Shown piece by piece: positions 33,932 through 64,000 of a DNA stretch of 64,000 nucleotides. Source of the stretch: a virus. Taxonomy: Duplodnaviria; Caudoviricetes. Each line of letters opens with the position of its first letter. The stretch's first letter is position 1. The notes under the pieces were generated by a model. The model ran no database searches. It was not told the DNA's origin and worked only from the letters and a program-made list of their open reading frames with translations. Where the stretch lies: positions 4,310 to 68,309 of IMG/VR virus record IMGVR_UViG_3300047539_000052. The stretch is one strand, 5' to 3'. The position numbers and the translations under genes are program-made.

Positions 33932-34744
33932 ATGAAGGCTCCCGTCGCGCTTACATCTGAAGAATTGCTGGCTGTGCTCGCCCTGGCGCGGGCGCGGCGG
34001 CTGCGGGACTGGGTAATTCTGCTTACGCTCTATTGGGGCGGTTACCGCGTGAGCGAGGTAGTGCGCAGCTCCACGCATCAAATGGGACTCTTTTTTACTC
34101 GCGAACGGGCGGAGCAGCGCCTGCGGGATAAAGGGGAAGGCGCCAGCATCCGGGAAGTGCAGCGCAAGGTACGCGGCCGGCTGCGAACCTGCTTCCTGGT
34201 TGAATCGGCCCAGTCGGTTATCCGGCCCGGGCTGCGCGAGGATGCGATCGAGGGGCAGGAAATCACGGTCCAGCGGCTGAAGGGATCCCTCGAGACCGTC
34301 CAGTTGCTCCAGGAGCACGAAAACCCGCTTTTGAACGAAAAAGCGGCCTGGGAAGAGTGGCTGGCGGATCGGCATCGCTACGGGAAAAAAGGCGGAGCTA
34401 AAACGGTGCAAAACAACGTTTTGGAGCCTAACGGCCGGAACGACCCGCTATTCAATATCTCGCGAAGCCAACTCTTCCGCCTCTACCGATCCTACGCGCG
34501 CGAGGCCGGCTTACCCCGCCGCAAGCTTCATCCGCATTGCCTGAAGCACACGCTCGGTACCGATCTGGTCGAATCTGGAATGTCGCTCCCAGAGGTGCAG
34601 GTTACGCTGGGGCACAAATCGCTGGCGTCTACGGGGCAGTACACGCTACCAAAAGAAGAGGCGGTTTCTCGAGCGGTGGGGCGGGCGATTCGCGGCAAGG
34701 AAGAATTCAAGCGAGCGAGGCAGGGCGATCTGTTTACTTCCTGA
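33932..34744 (+). CDS. tyrosine recombinase (short, FimB/XerD catalytic-domain type)
   Basis: RDWVIL..GYRVSEV, RLKGS, HPHCLKH, LGHKSLASTGQY. Confidence 0.85.
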   Translation: MKAPVALTSEELLAVLALARARRLRDWVILLTLYWGGYRVSEVVRSSTHQMGLFFTRERAEQRLRDKGEGASIREVQRKVRGRLRTCFLVESAQSVIRPGLREDAIEGQEITVQRLKGSLETVQLLQEHENPLLNEKAAWEEWLADRHRYGKKGGAKTVQNNVLEPNGRNDPLFNISRSQLFRLYRSYAREAGLPRRKLHPHCLKHTLGTDLVESGMSLPEVQVTLGHKSLASTGQYTLPKEEAVSRAVGRAIRGKEEFKRARQGDLFTS

Positions 34745-56900: not shown

Positions 56901-57122
56901 ATGAGCGCATCGGTGGCTGTAATTCATCCCGTTCTAGCGCCAGCCGAAGTGCGGGCCTTGCAACTGGCGGCGGATGGGGAGAGTTGCGGATCGAGCGCGA
57001 GGCTTCTGGGACTGGCTTTGGCCACGCTCAAGAATCAACGGCATTCCGCCTGCTTAAAGCTCGGAGCGGATAATACCTGCCACGCGGTTGCGCAAGCGAT
57101 TCGCCGGGGCTTGATTCAGTGA
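56901..57122 (+). CDS. stand-alone LuxR-type HTH regulator
   Basis: LAPAEVRALQLAADG.S....ARLLGLA..T.K.....KLGA....AVAQAIRRGLI. Confidence 0.8.
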   Translation: MSASVAVIHPVLAPAEVRALQLAADGESCGSSARLLGLALATLKNQRHSACLKLGADNTCHAVAQAIRRGLIQ

Positions 57123-57721
57123 AGAAGCTCTCGTATGGGAAGAAGATCCGCCGAACCCTGCGAACGCCTCTGGGCCGACTGCTTACGCCGGACGGCCTGG
57201 AAGCAGTTTTGAAGCAGGAAGCGGAACGAGTTCGCGTTCGAGCTGCGCTGCTCGATCTTACCTGGCCGGAGCGCCAACGGATCTCACTCCGTCCTCCGCA
57301 GATTTGTCCCGAGTGCGGAAAGATAACCGATGGCTCAAGATTTTGTGAAGCTCATCAGCTTAAAAATCGGTCGTTACGAGATGGCGCTGATCGCAGTCGA
57401 GTCCGACGCGAAGATGGCTTCAAGCGACTTTACGACTCCTGGGCCTGGCGCGGGCGAAGAGGGATCCGGAGACAGGTCTTAGCGCGTGATCCTTTCTGCC
57501 AGATTGGGATATTGTGCGAGGGCCGCGGATTCAGCGTGGACGTGGATCACATCATTCGGGCAGAAGTGTATATCGCACAGCATGGCGGCGATTCCGGAAT
57601 GTTCTTTGATCTGGATAATTTACGAGGATCGTGCCATGAAGACCACGCAAGGAAAACGTCTTTAGAAAATCGCGGACTGTGGGATGAGCGAGAAGTAGTG
57701 AAGGCTTTAGCCAGCATCTAG
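57119..57721 (+). CDS. terminase-associated HNH endonuclease (HK97 gp74-like) with N-terminal extension
   Basis: QVLARDPFCQ..C.....VDHII...DLDNLRGSCHEDHARKT, upstream of terS. Confidence 0.85.
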   Translation: MKKLSYGKKIRRTLRTPLGRLLTPDGLEAVLKQEAERVRVRAALLDLTWPERQRISLRPPQICPECGKITDGSRFCEAHQLKNRSLRDGADRSRVRREDGFKRLYDSWAWRGRRGIRRQVLARDPFCQIGILCEGRGFSVDVDHIIRAEVYIAQHGGDSGMFFDLDNLRGSCHEDHARKTSLENRGLWDEREVVKALASI

Positions 57722-57970
57722 GTCGCCGTCCTGGTTAAACGTGACGATCTCTTCCGGTTCACGACCAAGAACTTCTGATAGTTCTTCTATCGCATCCTGC
57801 CGCGAGAAGCCAATGGCTGTGGTGGCCGGAATCCACACTTTCGATGTTTCCCGCTCTATCACGCCCACGAAGAAATGCTCCTCCGAAAAGACGTGGCGCA
57901 GAGCATCTTTCAGTTCCTCTTCCTCAAGATAAACTGTCTCGAAATATCGATGGACAACAGCGGCGTACAT
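57707..57970 (-). CDS. antisense moron, acidic hypothetical protein
   Basis: TACAAT -10 element 9 nt before ATG. Confidence 0.55.
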   Translation of the reverse strand: MYAAVVHRYFETVYLEEEELKDALRHVFSEEHFFVGVIERETSKVWIPATTAIGFSRQDAIEELSEVLGREPEEIVTFNQDGDLDAG

Positions 57971-58017
57971 AGTGAGCGAATTGTACGCTGTGCATCAGGA
58001 AGCGAGAAAAGCATTTT

Positions 58018-58545
58018 ATGGGCGGCGTTCGAGGTCGATCAGGCGGCAAGAATCGTAAAACGCTGGCGCAGAAGCTGCGGGACGGCAATCCGGGCAAACG
58101 GAAACTGAACCGGAAGGAACGGCAGGCACTCCCCGGCGAGCCGAAGTTGCCGAGCGGCATGACCCGAGAAGCGCAAGCGGTATGGCCGGAGATTGTGGCC
58201 ATCCTGAAAGAGAATAATGCGCTGTTTATCACGGACGGACTAGCCATTGCGGCTTTGTGCTCCAGTTTTGTACTCTTCCGCAAAGCAGAGACGGCAATTG
58301 AAAAGTCTGGGGCTTTTAACGTTACCGTGGATGAAAAAACTGGAATCGGAGAATTAAGAACTTCTCCAGCCGTGCGAGTGCGAAGCGATGCTCTGAAGCA
58401 CATGCGGGCAGGTTGGCAGGCCTTTGGACTGGATCCAGTATCACGATCGGGATTGAGTGTGGGGAAGATCCCGGACAGACAGCCGGAGACGGCACTGGAT
58501 GCGATTTTACGAGCAAAAAGCGCCGGTGATGACGTGGTCAATTAA
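58018..58545 (+). CDS. terS: terminase small subunit (P27 family)
   Basis: GNPGKRKLN..EP, A.AVW..I...L, SPAV, FGLDP.SRSGL. Confidence 0.9.
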   Translation: MGGVRGRSGGKNRKTLAQKLRDGNPGKRKLNRKERQALPGEPKLPSGMTREAQAVWPEIVAILKENNALFITDGLAIAALCSSFVLFRKAETAIEKSGAFNVTVDEKTGIGELRTSPAVRVRSDALKHMRAGWQAFGLDPVSRSGLSVGKIPDRQPETALDAILRAKSAGDDVVN

Positions 58546-58680: not shown

Positions 58681-58787
58681 TATCACGATCTGGATTGAGT
58701 GTGGGGAAGATTCCAGACAGACAGCCGGAGACAGCACTGGATGCGATCCTGCGAGCGAAGAGTGCAGGGGATGACGTGGTGAATTAA
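58681..58787 (+). repeat. displaced second copy of the terS 3' end (58439..58545)
   Basis: Same 34 amino acids plus stop; 13 substitutions, all synonymous; no start in frame. Confidence 0.95.
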
Positions 58788-59005: not shown

Positions 59006-59263
59006 ATGATGTTTTGGGTCCGGGACCGGAATGCGGAAATGGCATGGGTCGATCATTGCGGCATCCGATACAAATGCCCCGTTCCCCTATTGCTGCTTTC
59101 CCCTCGTCATGGCGTCCGCATCTTTTGGAGAACGGTTCTTTGGATGCTCGGGCTCGGAAATTCTCCCGGTCCCGTCCCAATCGGCAACGGCCCATTCCTT
59201 TTGAGAGAGTTCCCAACGCTCGCCAGTTACACGTCAGAATCGCGTGATCCAACATTCGAGTAA
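59006..59263 (+). CDS. hypothetical protein
   Basis: Packed between 59002 and terL. Confidence 0.4.
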   Translation: MMFWVRDRNAEMAWVDHCGIRYKCPVPLLLLSPRHGVRIFWRTVLWMLGLGNSPGPVPIGNGPFLLREFPTLASYTSESRDPTFE

Positions 59264-60380
59264 GTGGAAGACATCGGCTGCCGAGAAATTATTAGCCGAG
59301 CACTGCCGCAGAATCCCCACCGTTGCAAGATATTCATTAGACGTTCTGACTGGAAACATTCCAACCGGAAGGCTGATGTTTCTGGCGGTTGAACGGTTTG
59401 TCGATGATCTTCAGAACGGTCCTTCCCGCGGATTACGCTTCGATCAGGGCGCCGCAGTCGCAATCATCAAATTCTTTCGCGACCTGGCTTTCCCTTCAAA
59501 GCCTCCAGTGGGATATGAGCAGTTTGTCTTGGCGAATCTCTTCGGCTGGAAGAAAGCGGATGGATATCGCAGGTTTCAGACGGCCTACATTGAAATCGGT
59601 AAAGGTAACAGAAAAACTCCGCTTGCTTCGGGAGTGGGATTATACGGCATCACCGGAGACGAAGAACCCAGCTCAGAAGTCTATCTAGTCGCCCCGACAA
59701 AAGAGCAGTCCGCGATTGGCTTCAAGGACGCGGCTCTCATGGTCGACGCTTCGCCAGAACTCAGGAAACTGGTCAAGAAGTATGGCTGCTCGAACCGCTA
59801 CACCAGCGGGAATTTAAGCTGTGGCGCGTCTTTCATGCGGCCGATCGCAGCCGACCGAGACAATCTCGACGGTCCCAGACCGCACGTTGTCATCGTTGAC
59901 GAGTTACACGAACATAAAGATTCGCAGATCGTAGACAAGCTGGTCGCAGGATTCAAGCACCGCAGACAGCCGCTAGTCTTTGAAATTACGAATTCTGGCC
60001 ATGACCGGGAAACCATCTGCTGGCAGCATCACGAATACACGAGACAGATCCTTGAGAAGATCTTCACCAACGATTCCTGGTTCGGCTTCATCTGCCACTT
60101 AGACGTATGCGACGATTGCCGATCAAGAGGGAAAGATCAGCCAAATTGCGACAACTGCGATAACTGGCTGGATGAAAGTGTCTGGGTCAAAGCGAATCCC
60201 GGACTCGATGCAATTCTTCCGCGAGACTACCTGCATAAGCAAGTGAAGGCGGCACTGGAGATGCCATCCAGCCGGAATCTGATCCAGCGGCTAAACTTTT
60301 GCATCTGGACGCAGAGCGTAGAGCATTTTATCTCTCCGGAGGCGTGGAGAGCTTGTGCGTGGGAAGAAGTGGCGGTTTAA
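59244..60380 (+). CDS. terL: terminase large subunit, N-terminal ATPase part
   Basis: YIEIGKGNRKT, VIVDELHEH, FEITNSG, WVKANPGL, RLNFCIW. Confidence 0.9.
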   Translation: MIQHSSKWKTSAAEKLLAEHCRRIPTVARYSLDVLTGNIPTGRLMFLAVERFVDDLQNGPSRGLRFDQGAAVAIIKFFRDLAFPSKPPVGYEQFVLANLFGWKKADGYRRFQTAYIEIGKGNRKTPLASGVGLYGITGDEEPSSEVYLVAPTKEQSAIGFKDAALMVDASPELRKLVKKYGCSNRYTSGNLSCGASFMRPIAADRDNLDGPRPHVVIVDELHEHKDSQIVDKLVAGFKHRRQPLVFEITNSGHDRETICWQHHEYTRQILEKIFTNDSWFGFICHLDVCDDCRSRGKDQPNCDNCDNWLDESVWVKANPGLDAILPRDYLHKQVKAALEMPSSRNLIQRLNFCIWTQSVEHFISPEAWRACAWEEVAV

Positions 60381-60592
60381 GGCTCTTTCTGCCAGAAATT
60401 TACGCAGTAGGTTGTGGTTTGATAGGCCCTTCCGTTCCGAGTTAGGCCTTCCTTCTGCACTCTCACTAAGTGGGACTTTCTTCCAAAGCCTGTGACCCTT
60501 CCCCGGAGAGCCGGATTGGTCCGATTCCATTCTTCGGTAGTCACAACCATATCGCCGATCGCGAACAGGTTGCGGTTTCGAAAGCCGAGCAT
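60377..60592 (-). CDS. antisense gene filling the gap between the terL halves
   Basis: MLGFRNRNLFAIGDMV..GRVTGFG..VRVQ (SH3/KOW-like); TACAAT immediately upstream. Confidence 0.55.
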   Translation of the reverse strand: MLGFRNRNLFAIGDMVVTTEEWNRTNPALRGRVTGFGRKSHLVRVQKEGLTRNGRAYQTTTYCVNFWQKEP

Positions 60593-61283
60593 GAGCGAAT
60601 TGTATATCGGTGACCCCGTAGCCTGGCGCCGGCACAAAATAGAATATTTGAAAGGCTGCATCTGCTTTGGCGGATTGGATCTCGGAGCGGTCAACGATTT
60701 CACTTGTTTAGCGCTTTACTTCCCAAAGCAGCCAAAGGTTCTGAAACCTGTATTACTCCTCTGGTCATGGGTTCCAGCCGACGTCGATCAGCACAAAGTC
60801 CTGAAAGAGCGCTACGGATTCGAGCAGTGGGTCGAAGGCGGATTCCTGAAACTTACTTCCGGCGTGCGCACCGACTATGCCGTCTTGCGGGAAGACATCC
60901 TGCAACTGGACCGGGATTACGTGATTGAAGAATTAGCCTACGATCCGCGATTTTCCTTCCAACTCGTTCAAGAATTGATGGCCGAGAGCGTCAACGTCGT
61001 CGAACACCGCCAGGGTCCAATCTCAATGACCGGGCCGATTCAGGAATTTCAGCGGCAGATTTTGGGCAAAGACTTCGTACACGGCATGAATCCCTTACTC
61101 ACATTCAACGTGGACAATCTAGTCGTAGAAGATGACGGGCGCGGCAATTTGATGTGCGCAAAACCGGGGAATCCGAACTCTCCACGGAAGATTGATGGGG
61201 CTGTTGCTTCGATCATGGCAACGGGGCGAGCGGCGGCGAATCCAGACGCTTGCGGATCTAGCGGACAGGTTTACTTCGCATGA
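60591..61283 (+). CDS. terL: terminase large subunit, C-terminal nuclease part
   Basis: GGLDLGAVNDFT, ELAYDP, V.HRQG, KIDGAVASIMA. Confidence 0.9.
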   Translation: MSELYIGDPVAWRRHKIEYLKGCICFGGLDLGAVNDFTCLALYFPKQPKVLKPVLLLWSWVPADVDQHKVLKERYGFEQWVEGGFLKLTSGVRTDYAVLREDILQLDRDYVIEELAYDPRFSFQLVQELMAESVNVVEHRQGPISMTGPIQEFQRQILGKDFVHGMNPLLTFNVDNLVVEDDGRGNLMCAKPGNPNSPRKIDGAVASIMATGRAAANPDACGSSGQVYFA

Positions 61284-61446: not shown

Positions 61447-64000
61447 ATGCGCCTGACCAAGCGAATCGGCGGATTTTTCTCTAGTCTGTCCTTTCGCGCC
61501 GATGCTGGGTTAGGAATAATTGGCTCGCCTTCGCCTGATTCAGATTACTGGTATCACGGCCTCGGTCACAGAAGTGCGGCCGGGCCGAATGTTTCTCCGG
61601 GTACGGCCACACGACTAGCTGCGGTCTTTGCCTGCACGCGCGTATGCGCGGAAACCCTGGGCTCGCTTCCCATTGGCATCTATCGAGAGCGCAAAAGCGG
61701 CGGACGTGATGCGGCTACGGATCATCCCGCGCAAGAATTATTCCTCAAGCCGAACCAATGGCAGACAGGAATGGAATTTTTCGAACTGATGCAGGCGCAT
61801 CTTGAACTCCGCGGTAACGCTTATGCAATAAAAGTACCGGGGAACGGGCGGGCGATCGATCAACTCATCCCAGTGCATCCCGATCGGGTCCGAGTTTACT
61901 TACTTCCGAACAGCCGACTGCGCTACGAAGTCACGCAGTATTCCACTGGACAAATTGATCGCTACACTCAGGATGAAATCCTGCACATGCGGGGATGGTC
62001 CTTCGATGGAATTTTAGGAATCTCCACGGTCAGCGCATTGGCCGAAGTGATCGGAGTCGGCCTTGCGCAACAAGAACACCGAGCCCGTTATTTCCGCAAC
62101 AACGCGATTCCGGGCATGGCGATTGAGTCAGCGTTGAAGCAGACTGAGGAAGCGCGCGAGAAGCTGACCAACTCGATCGAGGAAAAATTTACCGGCGAAG
62201 GCGCTTTCAGAGTCATGTCTTTGCCGCCGGGCATGACGGTTAAAATGCTCGGGCTCACGAATAAGGATTCGCAGTTAATCGAAGCGTCAGCGGCATCGCG
62301 AGTCGAAATATGTGGCGCTTGGCGCGTACCTCCGCATAAAATAGGCGACTTGTCCCGCGGCACGTTCTGTTTACCGGGAGACGTTCTAGTCTCGACGGAA
62401 TTCGGCCCAAAGCCCATCCGCGACATCGTGGAAGGTGAACGTGTCTGGAGCATGAACTCGGAGGGCGCATTAGTCCTCAACAAAGTTCTGCGCTCGGCCT
62501 GCACCGGCGAAGATCGCATCCTCACCATCCGCGCGATGAATCGGACGATCCGCTGCAACGCAAAACACAAACTTTTAGTCCGTCGTGAAATTCAGGAAGA
62601 ATACAAAGGCGGCCGCGGAAGATATCACGTAAGAAAAGACGGCTGGAAATATCGCCGCGCATTCGCGAATGATTACGTTCCTGCCGGCGAACTGAAGCCA
62701 GATGACGAACTGGTCGCGGTCAATGCGCTCCCTGAGCAAAACGGAACCGATGCACCCACACGGAAAGCGACAGTTCCCTTCATGGAAGTGCTGGGGCTGC
62801 TGCTTGGTGATGGCTTCTACGCGAGAACGGCCAAGACTGGCAAGGGAACAACTTTTGGAATCTCGCACGCGGAAAATGCGAGCTTCATGCCCTACTATGT
62901 GCGGCAGATTGAGAGTCTATTCCAGCGCCGCACGCTAAATCATTCAAGTTTCAATCGCGTTCTCCGCGCCCATCTTCGCGATAAGAACACGACCATGTTT
63001 TATTCACAGGCCGCCTATGAGGAGCTCGAAGCCTGCGGCCTGGTCGGCACGGCGAAAACAAAAAGCATTCCAGAATGGATTTTCGGCCTCACGAACGAAC
63101 TGAAGTTTGCGTTTTTGCGTGGCTACCTCGACGCGGATGGAACGATTCAAAAAGATGGGCACCACATTAGATATGTGTCCGTCAACCATGACATGCTCGA
63201 CCAAGTGCGTCATTTGTGCGTCAGTGCGGGCATTCATGTCGGCAACCTTTTTGATGCTGAGATAACGAGTGATTTCGGCGGTGATCATGGGGAATACACG
63301 CATATTCTTTGGGGCTTCGTCTGCTCCAACATCGAGGACCTTGAGCGCATCGGAAGCCATACGCCGATGTACCGAGAACGAATCGAGGCGCGGCGTGCGA
63401 ATCGATTTAAGAGAACCTGCCATGTCTATCCGTCCGAAAGAAAATTATTTAGCGACTTCGGTCCGGGCATGCACTCGACTGCGATTCAGAGTATCGATAC
63501 GTCCCAGGATGCCGAACCGGTCTTTGATCTCTCGGTGGATGGGGACCACAACTTTATTGGCGAGTTAGTTATTATCAAAAACAGCAACATTGAGCAGCAG
63601 AACATCGAGTTTGCAACCGATTGCCAGCGGCCCCGAATCGTGCGCCTGGAGCGGCGTTTGGACGCTGACGTTGTTTCTTCATTGCGTGCATTTGAATCCG
63701 CAGCGGGAGATTTCTTCGCAGTTTTCAATATGGATGCGCTCTACCGCGGCGACATGAAATCGCGTTACGAGGCTTATCAGCTCGCGGCGCAGACCTGGAT
63801 GCCGCGTAACGAGATCCGCGCTCTTGAAGGCAGAAATCCAATCCCAGGACTCGATGAGCCGCTGGTGCCGGTCAACATGGAAACAATTTCGCAAGCGCAA
63901 GCTCGCAATACTGCGAACAATGCGAGAGCGAAGGCCAGCGTAAATACGAGTGGCGAAGAAGATGACGCATCCGGGCCGGGCTCCGGTGGGGCGGAGACGC
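61447..64000 (+). CDS. HK97-family portal protein with intein (3' truncated by window edge)
   Basis: AVFACTRVCAETLGSLP, GNAYA, ILHMRG, VPPHKIG..RGTF|SNIEQQ, RGDMKSRY, NEIRALE; frame open to 64000. Confidence 0.95.
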   Translation, partial: MRLTKRIGGFFSSLSFRADAGLGIIGSPSPDSDYWYHGLGHRSAAGPNVSPGTATRLAAVFACTRVCAETLGSLPIGIYRERKSGGRDAATDHPAQELFLKPNQWQTGMEFFELMQAHLELRGNAYAIKVPGNGRAIDQLIPVHPDRVRVYLLPNSRLRYEVTQYSTGQIDRYTQDEILHMRGWSFDGILGISTVSALAEVIGVGLAQQEHRARYFRNNAIPGMAIESALKQTEEAREKLTNSIEEKFTGEGAFRVMSLPPGMTVKMLGLTNKDSQLIEASAASRVEICGAWRVPPHKIGDLSRGTFCLPGDVLVSTEFGPKPIRDIVEGERVWSMNSEGALVLNKVLRSACTGEDRILTIRAMNRTIRCNAKHKLLVRREIQEEYKGGRGRYHVRKDGWKYRRAFANDYVPAGELKPDDELVAVNALPEQNGTDAPTRKATVPFMEVLGLLLGDGFYARTAKTGKGTTFGISHAENASFMPYYVRQIESLFQRRTLNHSSFNRVLRAHLRDKNTTMFYSQAAYEELEACGLVGTAKTKSIPEWIFGLTNELKFAFLRGYLDADGTIQKDGHHIRYVSVNHDMLDQVRHLCVSAGIHVGNLFDAEITSDFGGDHGEYTHILWGFVCSNIEDLERIGSHTPMYRERIEARRANRFKRTCHVYPSERKLFSDFGPGMHSTAIQSIDTSQDAEPVFDLSVDGDHNFIGELVIIKNSNIEQQNIEFATDCQRPRIVRLERRLDADVVSSLRAFESAAGDFFAVFNMDALYRGDMKSRYEAYQLAAQTWMPRNEIRALEGRNPIPGLDEPLVPVNMETISQAQARNTANNARAKASVNTSGEEDDASGPGSGGAET
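62368..63582 (+). mobile_element. intein with LAGLIDADG homing endonuclease (405 aa)
   Basis: Starts CLPGDVLV; CNAKH block B; LGLLLGDG and FLRGYLDADG; VFDLSV..HNF..LVIIKN followed by Ser+1. Confidence 0.93.

Follow-up and report, generated by a model that had tools for sequence, protein, structure and literature searches.

A probable two-chain terminase large subunit, with a slot for small cargo genes between its ATPase and nuclease halves, in a clade of uncultured soil and peat phages

Results

The terminase large subunit is encoded in two pieces

The window analysed here is a stretch of 64,000 nucleotides (nt) corresponding to bases 4310-68309 of a 68.3-kb viral contig from IMG/VR (IMGVR_UViG_3300047539_000052); unless another locus is named, coordinates are those of the window. 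In the packaging module at its right end, the terminase large subunit (TerL) is encoded in two pieces, terL-N and terL-C, and the slot between them is occupied by a small gene on the opposite strand. The features at the junction are the following (lengths of proteins in amino acids, aa):

59244-60380, plus strand: terL-N, ATPase domain and linker, 378 aa, stop codon TAA at 60378-60380
60381-60590: slot between the two genes, 210 nt, filled wholly by the antisense gene
60377-60592, minus strand: cargo gene, 71 aa plus stop, predicted small beta-barrel of the SH3/Tudor/KOW type
60591-61283, plus strand: terL-C, nuclease domain, 230 aa, with its own ATG at 60591-60593

The terL-C ATG lies in the frame of terL-N, 210 nt downstream, and four in-frame stops are found between the two. 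The stop codon of the 71-aa open reading frame (ORF), the reverse complement of 60377-60379, overlaps the terL-N stop in the palindrome TTAA (60377-60380), and its ATG, the reverse complement of 60590-60592, overlaps the terL-C ATG in CATG (60590-60593). An earlier reading of this DNA made without database searches (hereafter the sequence-only reading) had described these genes, the 210-nt gap and both overlaps, and all of its positions proved exact to the base.

The N-terminal piece matched the Pfam family TerL_ATPase (E 1.4e-28), columns 15-84 of TerL_nuclease and PHROG 9 (E 1.9e-85), and the C-terminal piece matched TerL_nuclease columns 90-284 (E 4e-17). The break is thus between TerL_nuclease columns 84 and 90, directly before the strand that carries the first catalytic Asp. 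When aligned with HK97 TerL (PDB 6Z6D), to which similarity was weak in phmmer (E 4.2e-10 and 5.4e-16 for the N and C pieces, respectively), the two pieces corresponded to residues 59-297 and 308-495. As both the HK97 alignment and the Pfam columns stop and resume at this point, the break can be assigned to the interdomain linker. In relatives with an intact TerL, the position of the break is a linker loop of variable length. The terL-N piece also carries a CxxC...CxxC (Cys4) insert at 60096-60170 (residues ~285-309) that was kept in all members of the split clade examined and is probably a zinc ribbon; this region is about 20 residues longer than the matching region of HK97.

The split is shared by a clade of related phages

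Scans of IMG/VR, JGI metagenomes and GTDB genomes yielded 93 related loci (designated below by L numbers), nine of which were incomplete. The comparison of homologues for split versus intact alleles, proposed in the sequence-only reading, showed that the split extends to a whole clade: terL was split, at the same linker position, in all 16 readable loci with at least 59% TerL-N identity, and it was intact, as one continuous ORF, in the 68 readable loci with 46% identity or less (68/68). None of the 16 readable clade loci encodes both domains on one polypeptide, as would be expected of an HK97-like TerL. In a maximum-likelihood tree of the ATPase half, obtained by a quick search, the split loci made up one side of a single branch (support of 100 in the Shimodaira-Hasegawa-like approximate likelihood ratio test, SH-aLRT) and were nested among intact TerLs. 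From these sequences, the split appears to have a single origin, in the common ancestor of this clade of uncultured phages from soil and peat.

Purifying selection acts on both halves: the pairwise ratio of nonsynonymous to synonymous substitution rates (dN/dS) was 0.08-0.22 in terL-N and 0.03-0.26 in terL-C, while the synonymous sites were close to saturated. The ASCE (additional strand, catalytic glutamate) ATPase motifs Walker A, Walker B and C-motif were conserved in eight members of the split clade, and the catalytic Asp columns of the nuclease (D30, D118 and D202) were invariant across 11 members. The possibility that the split allele is a non-functional one-off in a defective prophage, which the sequence-only reading had named as a potential refutation, does not survive the clade-wide split, the low dN/dS and the kept catalytic motifs.

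The position of the terL-C start was kept in all relatives, with stop codons a few codons upstream. Three relatives that carry no insert remain split. In L005 and L095, the TGA of terL-N overlaps the ATG of terL-C as ATGA and the halves are in different frames; in L083, the halves are in the same frame with only a TAG between them, directly followed by the ATG. Because the L095 contig was binned with a metagenome-assembled genome (MAG) of Candidatus Acidoferrum, the hosts of these phages may be Acidobacteriota.

When 5.8 billion proteins were searched with a word index, proteins consisting of the nuclease half alone formed a further ~55 clusters at 90% identity; they were 54-98% identical to terL-C and mostly 226-247 aa long. 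Their sources were JGI, ENA, Logan and NCBI assemblies, with contigs reaching 237 kb, and these proteins begin where terL-C begins.

Two further loci showed other arrangements. At L082 (1-2504), a terL-C gene (73% identical) was found without terL-N in the 2.5 kb upstream. Directly before it, with stop and start overlapping as ATGA, lies a hydrophobic ORF of 81 aa; further upstream are a gene for a 604-aa secreted-looking protein and the C-terminal end of what we take to be a DegT-type aminotransferase. A larger insertion, a rearrangement or a chimeric contig may account for this arrangement. At L088 (1-720), pieces of terL-N were present on both strands, residues 89-255 being inverted beside residues 317-377, which suggests a rearrangement or a misassembly.

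The slot between the TerL genes carries variable cargo

Across the clade, the slot measures -4, 0, 115, 148, 210, 217, 228, 243, 269, 432, 643 or 989 nt. It was found in 12 different states and contains unrelated small ORFs on either strand, as follows:

Window, antisense: 71 aa
L007 and L086, antisense: ~60 aa
L084 and L085, antisense: 65 aa, zinc-ribbon-like
L002 and L003, antisense: 65 aa
L088, sense: 74 aa, hydrophobic
L089, sense: 128 aa
L091, sense: 127 aa (hydrophobic N-terminus, possibly a signal peptide) and 166 aa

No significant match to an HNH, GIY-YIG or LAGLIDADG family was found for any cargo ORF of the 12 slot variants, the best endonuclease-like score being that of the L084 zinc-ribbon ORF with a PHROG HNH family (E 0.0055). 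Homologues of the L089 cargo (L089:489-872), 36-58% identical, lie upstream of terL-N in six relatives (L003, L004, L005, L007, L087 and L095), so cargo genes move between slots.

Signs of how cassettes are exchanged come from L002 and L003. Their TerL-N is 100% identical to that of the window, yet their slot holds two tandem cassettes. Each of the two has at its borders a separate copy of the terL-N end (37-42 nt, ~93-95% identical) and of the terL-C start (26-28 nt), and both terL-N end copies encode the same peptide tail. The window slot equals the L002 arrangement minus the first cassette, an insertion or deletion in DNA that is otherwise ~98% identical. A short copy of a terL end was also found in the window itself:

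60567-60578, plus strand: 12-nt copy of the terL-N 3' end of the L002/L003 type, 13 nt before the terL-C ATG (blastn 12/12, E 0.002)

Judged by its sequence and position, this copy appears to be the footprint of a duplication of the flank at cassette insertion. The flank footprints point to gain and loss of cassettes by recombination between related phages with different cargo. The 210-nt insert had no further copy in the same viral genome and is therefore not a multi-copy element.

The 71-aa gene is a late arrival in an existing slot

The sequence-only reading had presented TerL as being cut by the antisense gene. This does not hold: the split is found throughout the clade, whereas the 71-aa ORF is restricted to the lineage of the window (a scan of IMG/VR with a profile of its family detected that lineage only), so that the ORF is later cargo in a slot that already existed.

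The openness of its frame is not significant on its own, because shuffling a 210-nt gap of this composition left an antisense frame open in 11% of cases, and another open frame exists on the minus strand here (60291-60635, 114 aa). The latter had no homologue and no family match and is probably not a gene. For the 71-aa ORF, an exhaustive HMMER search of 1.8 billion proteins found four homologues of 74-84 aa (E 1.2e-10 to 3.7e-5), the family alignment contained 17 invariant columns, and the fold prediction that had been proposed as a check gave a confident AlphaFold2 model (predicted local distance difference test, pLDDT, 87) of a five-stranded small barrel of the SH3/Tudor/KOW type. Homologues, conserved columns and fold show that the ORF is a genuine gene. 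In the family alignment, the conserved core starts only near residue 10, so the first ~8 residues of the protein may derive from the local flanking sequence.

The protein belongs to no Pfam family and weakly matches PHROG 2251, of unknown function (E 5.5e-4). Foldseek matches were Tudor, Agenet and KOW domains and unnamed small phage proteins, none below E 1e-3. With respect to function, Pfam, PDB sequences, Foldseek against PDB and BFVD, and the ESM Atlas returned only the generic barrel and unnamed proteins.

The packaging module and other features of the window

The packaging module has the order HNH-like ORF, terS, terL-N, terL-C and portal gene. Besides the TerL genes, the following features were recorded:

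33932-34744, plus strand: tyrosine integrase (Pfam Phage_integrase, E 1.5e-17)
57119-57721: HNH-like ORF, beside terS
57707-57970, minus strand: second antisense ORF of the packaging module, 87 aa (57707-57985 with an upstream 13-nt motif)
58018-58545, plus strand: terS, small terminase (Pfam Terminase_4, E 3.5e-16)
61447-64000, plus strand, running past the window end: portal gene with a LAGLIDADG intein (Pfam Phage_portal, E 1.8e-82; Intein_splicing, LAGLIDADG_3 and Hint)

The HNH assignment was not confirmed by Pfam, and the 87-aa antisense ORF had neither a Pfam nor a PHROG match. Because of the integrase, the phage is probably temperate. The portal intein is a full protein-splicing element with its LAGLIDADG endonuclease, and one packaging module thereby holds both an intein and a split TerL that appears not to be spliced. 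The 3' end of terS is present twice, as diverged copies of ~107 nt each (58439-58545 and 58681-58787), and the two copies lie around a Trp-rich mini-ORF of ~46 aa (from the ATG at 58529). This pattern of a cassette with a duplicated flank, also noticed in the sequence-only reading, is the same as in the terL slot of L002.

Expression signals around the junction

The terL-C gene was said to lack a Shine-Dalgarno (SD) sequence, and only a GAG is indeed found 3-5 nt upstream of it; but the HNH-like gene and terL-N are likewise without a clear SD, hence the feature is not specific for terL-C. Partial G-rich matches are present upstream of terS and of the portal gene. No convincing terminator was found in the slot cargo. 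On the antisense strand, one short motif lies at the start of the cargo gene:

60592-60604, minus strand: 13-nt motif running into the antisense ATG; its plus strand forms terL-C codons 1-5

Within this 13-mer, TACAAT (60599-60604 read on the minus strand) resembles a -10 element and lies 6 nt upstream of the antisense ATG. It occurs exactly twice in the window, at 60592-60604 and, before the 87-aa antisense ORF, at 57973-57985. The same 13-mer precedes the unrelated antisense ORF of the first cassette of L002, and it therefore stands before three different antisense ORFs. Its sequence and placement suggest a shared promoter with a leaderless start, embedded in the first codons of terL-C, although a scan for consensus promoters did not find a full sigma-70 site at this place.

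Long-range RNA pairing between the terL-N stop and the terL-C start was considered as a shared coupling device and rejected: such a stem was absent in the window and in six other loci, marginal in L002 and strong only in L007 and L086 (z -5.8). At L007:4059-4310 (the sequence of L086 is the same), the end of terL-N, with its final codons and TAG, forms a ~21-bp stem with the region of the terL-C ATG, and the entire 228-nt cassette lies within it (z -3.0 for the fold and -5.8 for the end-to-end duplex). The arms of this stem hold TAGCT/AGCTA, like hairpin elements that the sequence-only reading had noted at 50.6-54.9 kb of the window.

Discussion

An intron accounts for most of the split terL genes in the literature: in Lelliottia phage phD2B and in K1E, terL is interrupted by a group I intron with a homing endonuclease (PMC4246154), and in Jug phages splicing of terL was confirmed by metatranscriptomes (PMC12880540). 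As in those phages, the full-length TerL is coded here by two or more ORFs, and the shared frame of the two pieces in the window would suit the excision of a (possibly degenerate) self-splicing intron of group I or II, restoring a single TerL. We nevertheless consider an intron very improbable. Rfam gave no match, the threshold being E <= 1 for the window and E <= 0.1 for nine relatives; the gap RNA was no more stable than shuffled sequences (z +0.5); and no homing endonuclease of the Pfam or PHROG families was present in the gap ORFs. The content of the gap is unrelated among relatives and often codes for protein on the opposite strand. Whereas the exons are rejoined in the published cases, the present loci have no intron signature and the insert-less alleles are still two genes: L005, L095 and L083 keep a stop and a separate ATG, with differing frames in two of the three. 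A fusion of the pieces by recoding, whether by a 210-nt translational bypass, by stop-codon readthrough or by frameshifting, is in our view just as hard to credit. The context of the last sense codon, GCGGTTT (60372-60378), repeats exactly 200 nt downstream (60572-60578), but this is the only repeat of that context and landing at its GTT would resume out of frame and meet a stop at 60611-60613. In L083, the two ORFs are in frame with a TAG alone between them, which speaks for recoding; across the split loci, however, the halves share a frame in seven and differ in nine, the terL-N stop is TAA, TAG or TGA depending on the member, gaps reach 989 nt with full genes inside, and in L005 the frame of the C piece has a stop two codons before its ATG, which leaves no window for a fusion. 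Splicing and bypass had both been put forward in the sequence-only reading; with no intron model, differing frames and three stop codons, they are unlikely, as is readthrough. A split intein was also rejected: no intein family was found on either piece, and the tails beyond the clade-conserved sequence extend only 2-10 and ~4-9 residues, which leaves no room for intein halves.

That the split TerL is simply broken, in a decaying prophage or through an assembly artefact, might be thought of because every member derives from a metagenome or a MAG. Against this stand the low dN/dS in both halves across saturated synonymous distances, the intact catalytic motifs, the recurrence of the same architecture in independent assemblies from four data sources, and the fact that the junction sequence of the window recurs in the gaps of L002 and L003 behind the extra first cassette. 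We give such an explanation very little weight.

The explanation that we consider probable is a TerL made of two chains, with the junction of the two genes acting as a recombination hot spot for cargo genes. A two-chain terminase was among the possibilities raised in the sequence-only reading, and it is now strongly supported by the split in every close relative, including those without an insert, and by the purifying selection on both halves. Several points weigh against it. All members are uncultured and known from metagenome or MAG sequences, and no isolate phage matched the split TerL above 36% identity (the features under the best isolate matches are a single terminase large subunit or a hypothetical protein). 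The tree behind the single split branch comes from a quick search only. Neither the length nor the sequence of the tails at the break is constant, and no conserved docking peptide is obvious. In the window, terL-C is without a clear SD, and a consensus scan found no sigma-70 promoter on either strand of the gap.

The same halves could also form no stable TerL-like unit, terL-N acting alone as the motor, like the nuclease-less ATPases of the phi29 type, and terL-C being a free accessory nuclease for end cleavage, perhaps together with the HNH-like protein. HK97 needs the HNH protein gp74 for terminase cleavage, and here the HNH-like gene (57119-57721) adjoins terS; the tails at the break are not conserved, and no dedicated docking peptide is evident. 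The HNH assignment is not confirmed by Pfam, however, and the gene order and the overlapping or abutting stop and start codons at three loci suggest a co-ordinated expression of the halves. Moreover, the isolated TerL nuclease domain of phage P74-26 neither binds nor cuts DNA, the ATPase domain being the part that grips it (PMC5389665), so docking of the nuclease to the ATPase is expected. We regard a free nuclease as unlikely, if somewhat less so than splicing, recoding or a broken gene.

In the proposed two-chain terminase, terL-N would provide the ATPase motor and the linker, and terL-C, as a separate gene with its own start, the RNase-H-like nuclease. Given the inactivity of the isolated nuclease domain (PMC5389665), the two chains would reassemble non-covalently on the packaging motor. 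Where the genes abut (ATGA, or TAG followed by ATG), terL-C is probably translated by coupling; where cargo lies between them, as in the window, it would have to initiate independently. The slot at the junction would allow small accessory genes to be gained, lost and swapped by recombination that leaves duplicated terL ends behind. The ATG of the 71-aa gene would be supplied by the CATG at the terL-C start, and the gene may be transcribed as a leaderless mRNA from the TACAAT within the opening codons of terL-C. Given the integrase, antisense cargo and late operon are most plausibly expressed at different times; if both were transcribed simultaneously, the 5' end of the antisense transcript would be complementary to the terL-C start region. 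The head-to-head starts may also interfere with each other, as the sequence-only reading had proposed. A bolder extension, which we offer tentatively and hold to be doubtful, is that TerL is permanently in two subunits throughout the clade and that the first codons of terL-C serve as a socket for antisense expression (the -10 element and the leaderless ATG in CATG), into which cargo is plugged by flank-duplicating recombination; an antisense transcript made, for example, in lysogeny might then cover the nuclease start and keep the nuclease off.

The nearest known parallel, of the "genes in pieces" kind, is nrdA of Aeromonas phage Aeh1, which is split by the free-standing endonuclease gene mobE and whose new tails are essential (PMC3045599). 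In both cases, the gene of an essential phage enzyme has become two retained ORFs with their own stop and start, foreign DNA lies between them, and tails are present at the break; function is restored in Aeh1 at the protein level without RNA or protein splicing, as we propose for TerL. The enzyme here is TerL, not ribonucleotide reductase; the TerL split is ancient and clade-wide whereas that of Aeh1 is found in one phage, no homing endonuclease is present in the 12 slot variants, some members are without an insert, and the TerL tails are variable whereas those of Aeh1 are essential interaction domains. Compared with the HK97-type TerL (6Z6D; PF03354 and PF20441, with a Terminase_4 small subunit), the clade keeps both domains, their motifs and the gene order HNH-like gene, terS, terL and portal, but has the domains on separate polypeptides and an extra Cys4 insert in the ATPase half. 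The cargo resembles phage morons in consisting of small variable genes at a fixed site between essential late genes, sometimes on the opposite strand, in a phage with an integrase. Unlike morons, it occupies a slot inside a gene that is single elsewhere, its cassettes carry duplicated flanking coding ends, and the antisense cassettes reuse one start codon and leader embedded in terL-C; the shared TACAAT 13-mer is present, but neither a full consensus promoter nor a convincing terminator was found.

No TerL protein characterised until now is known to have its ATPase and nuclease on separate chains. In P2-like phages, "ATPase subunit" and "endonuclease subunit" are names for the large and the small subunit of terminase rather than for halves of a TerL. 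In the literature covered, which is incomplete, we found no paper describing an intron-less, clade-wide two-gene ATPase/nuclease TerL. The present case shows that a split terL in a metagenome is not automatically an intron case or a pseudogene, and the traffic of accessory genes inside an otherwise single essential gene takes place at an unusual site. More speculatively, separate chains might alter recognition by host sensors that bind the whole TerL. The importance of the covalent link between the two domains is judged differently in models of DNA translocation and of the change from packaging to cutting, and a natural clade in which this link has long been absent, under purifying selection, offers a ready-made test of it. 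Should two separate chains prove able to package and cut DNA, the linker would be dispensable and the docking surfaces could be mapped.

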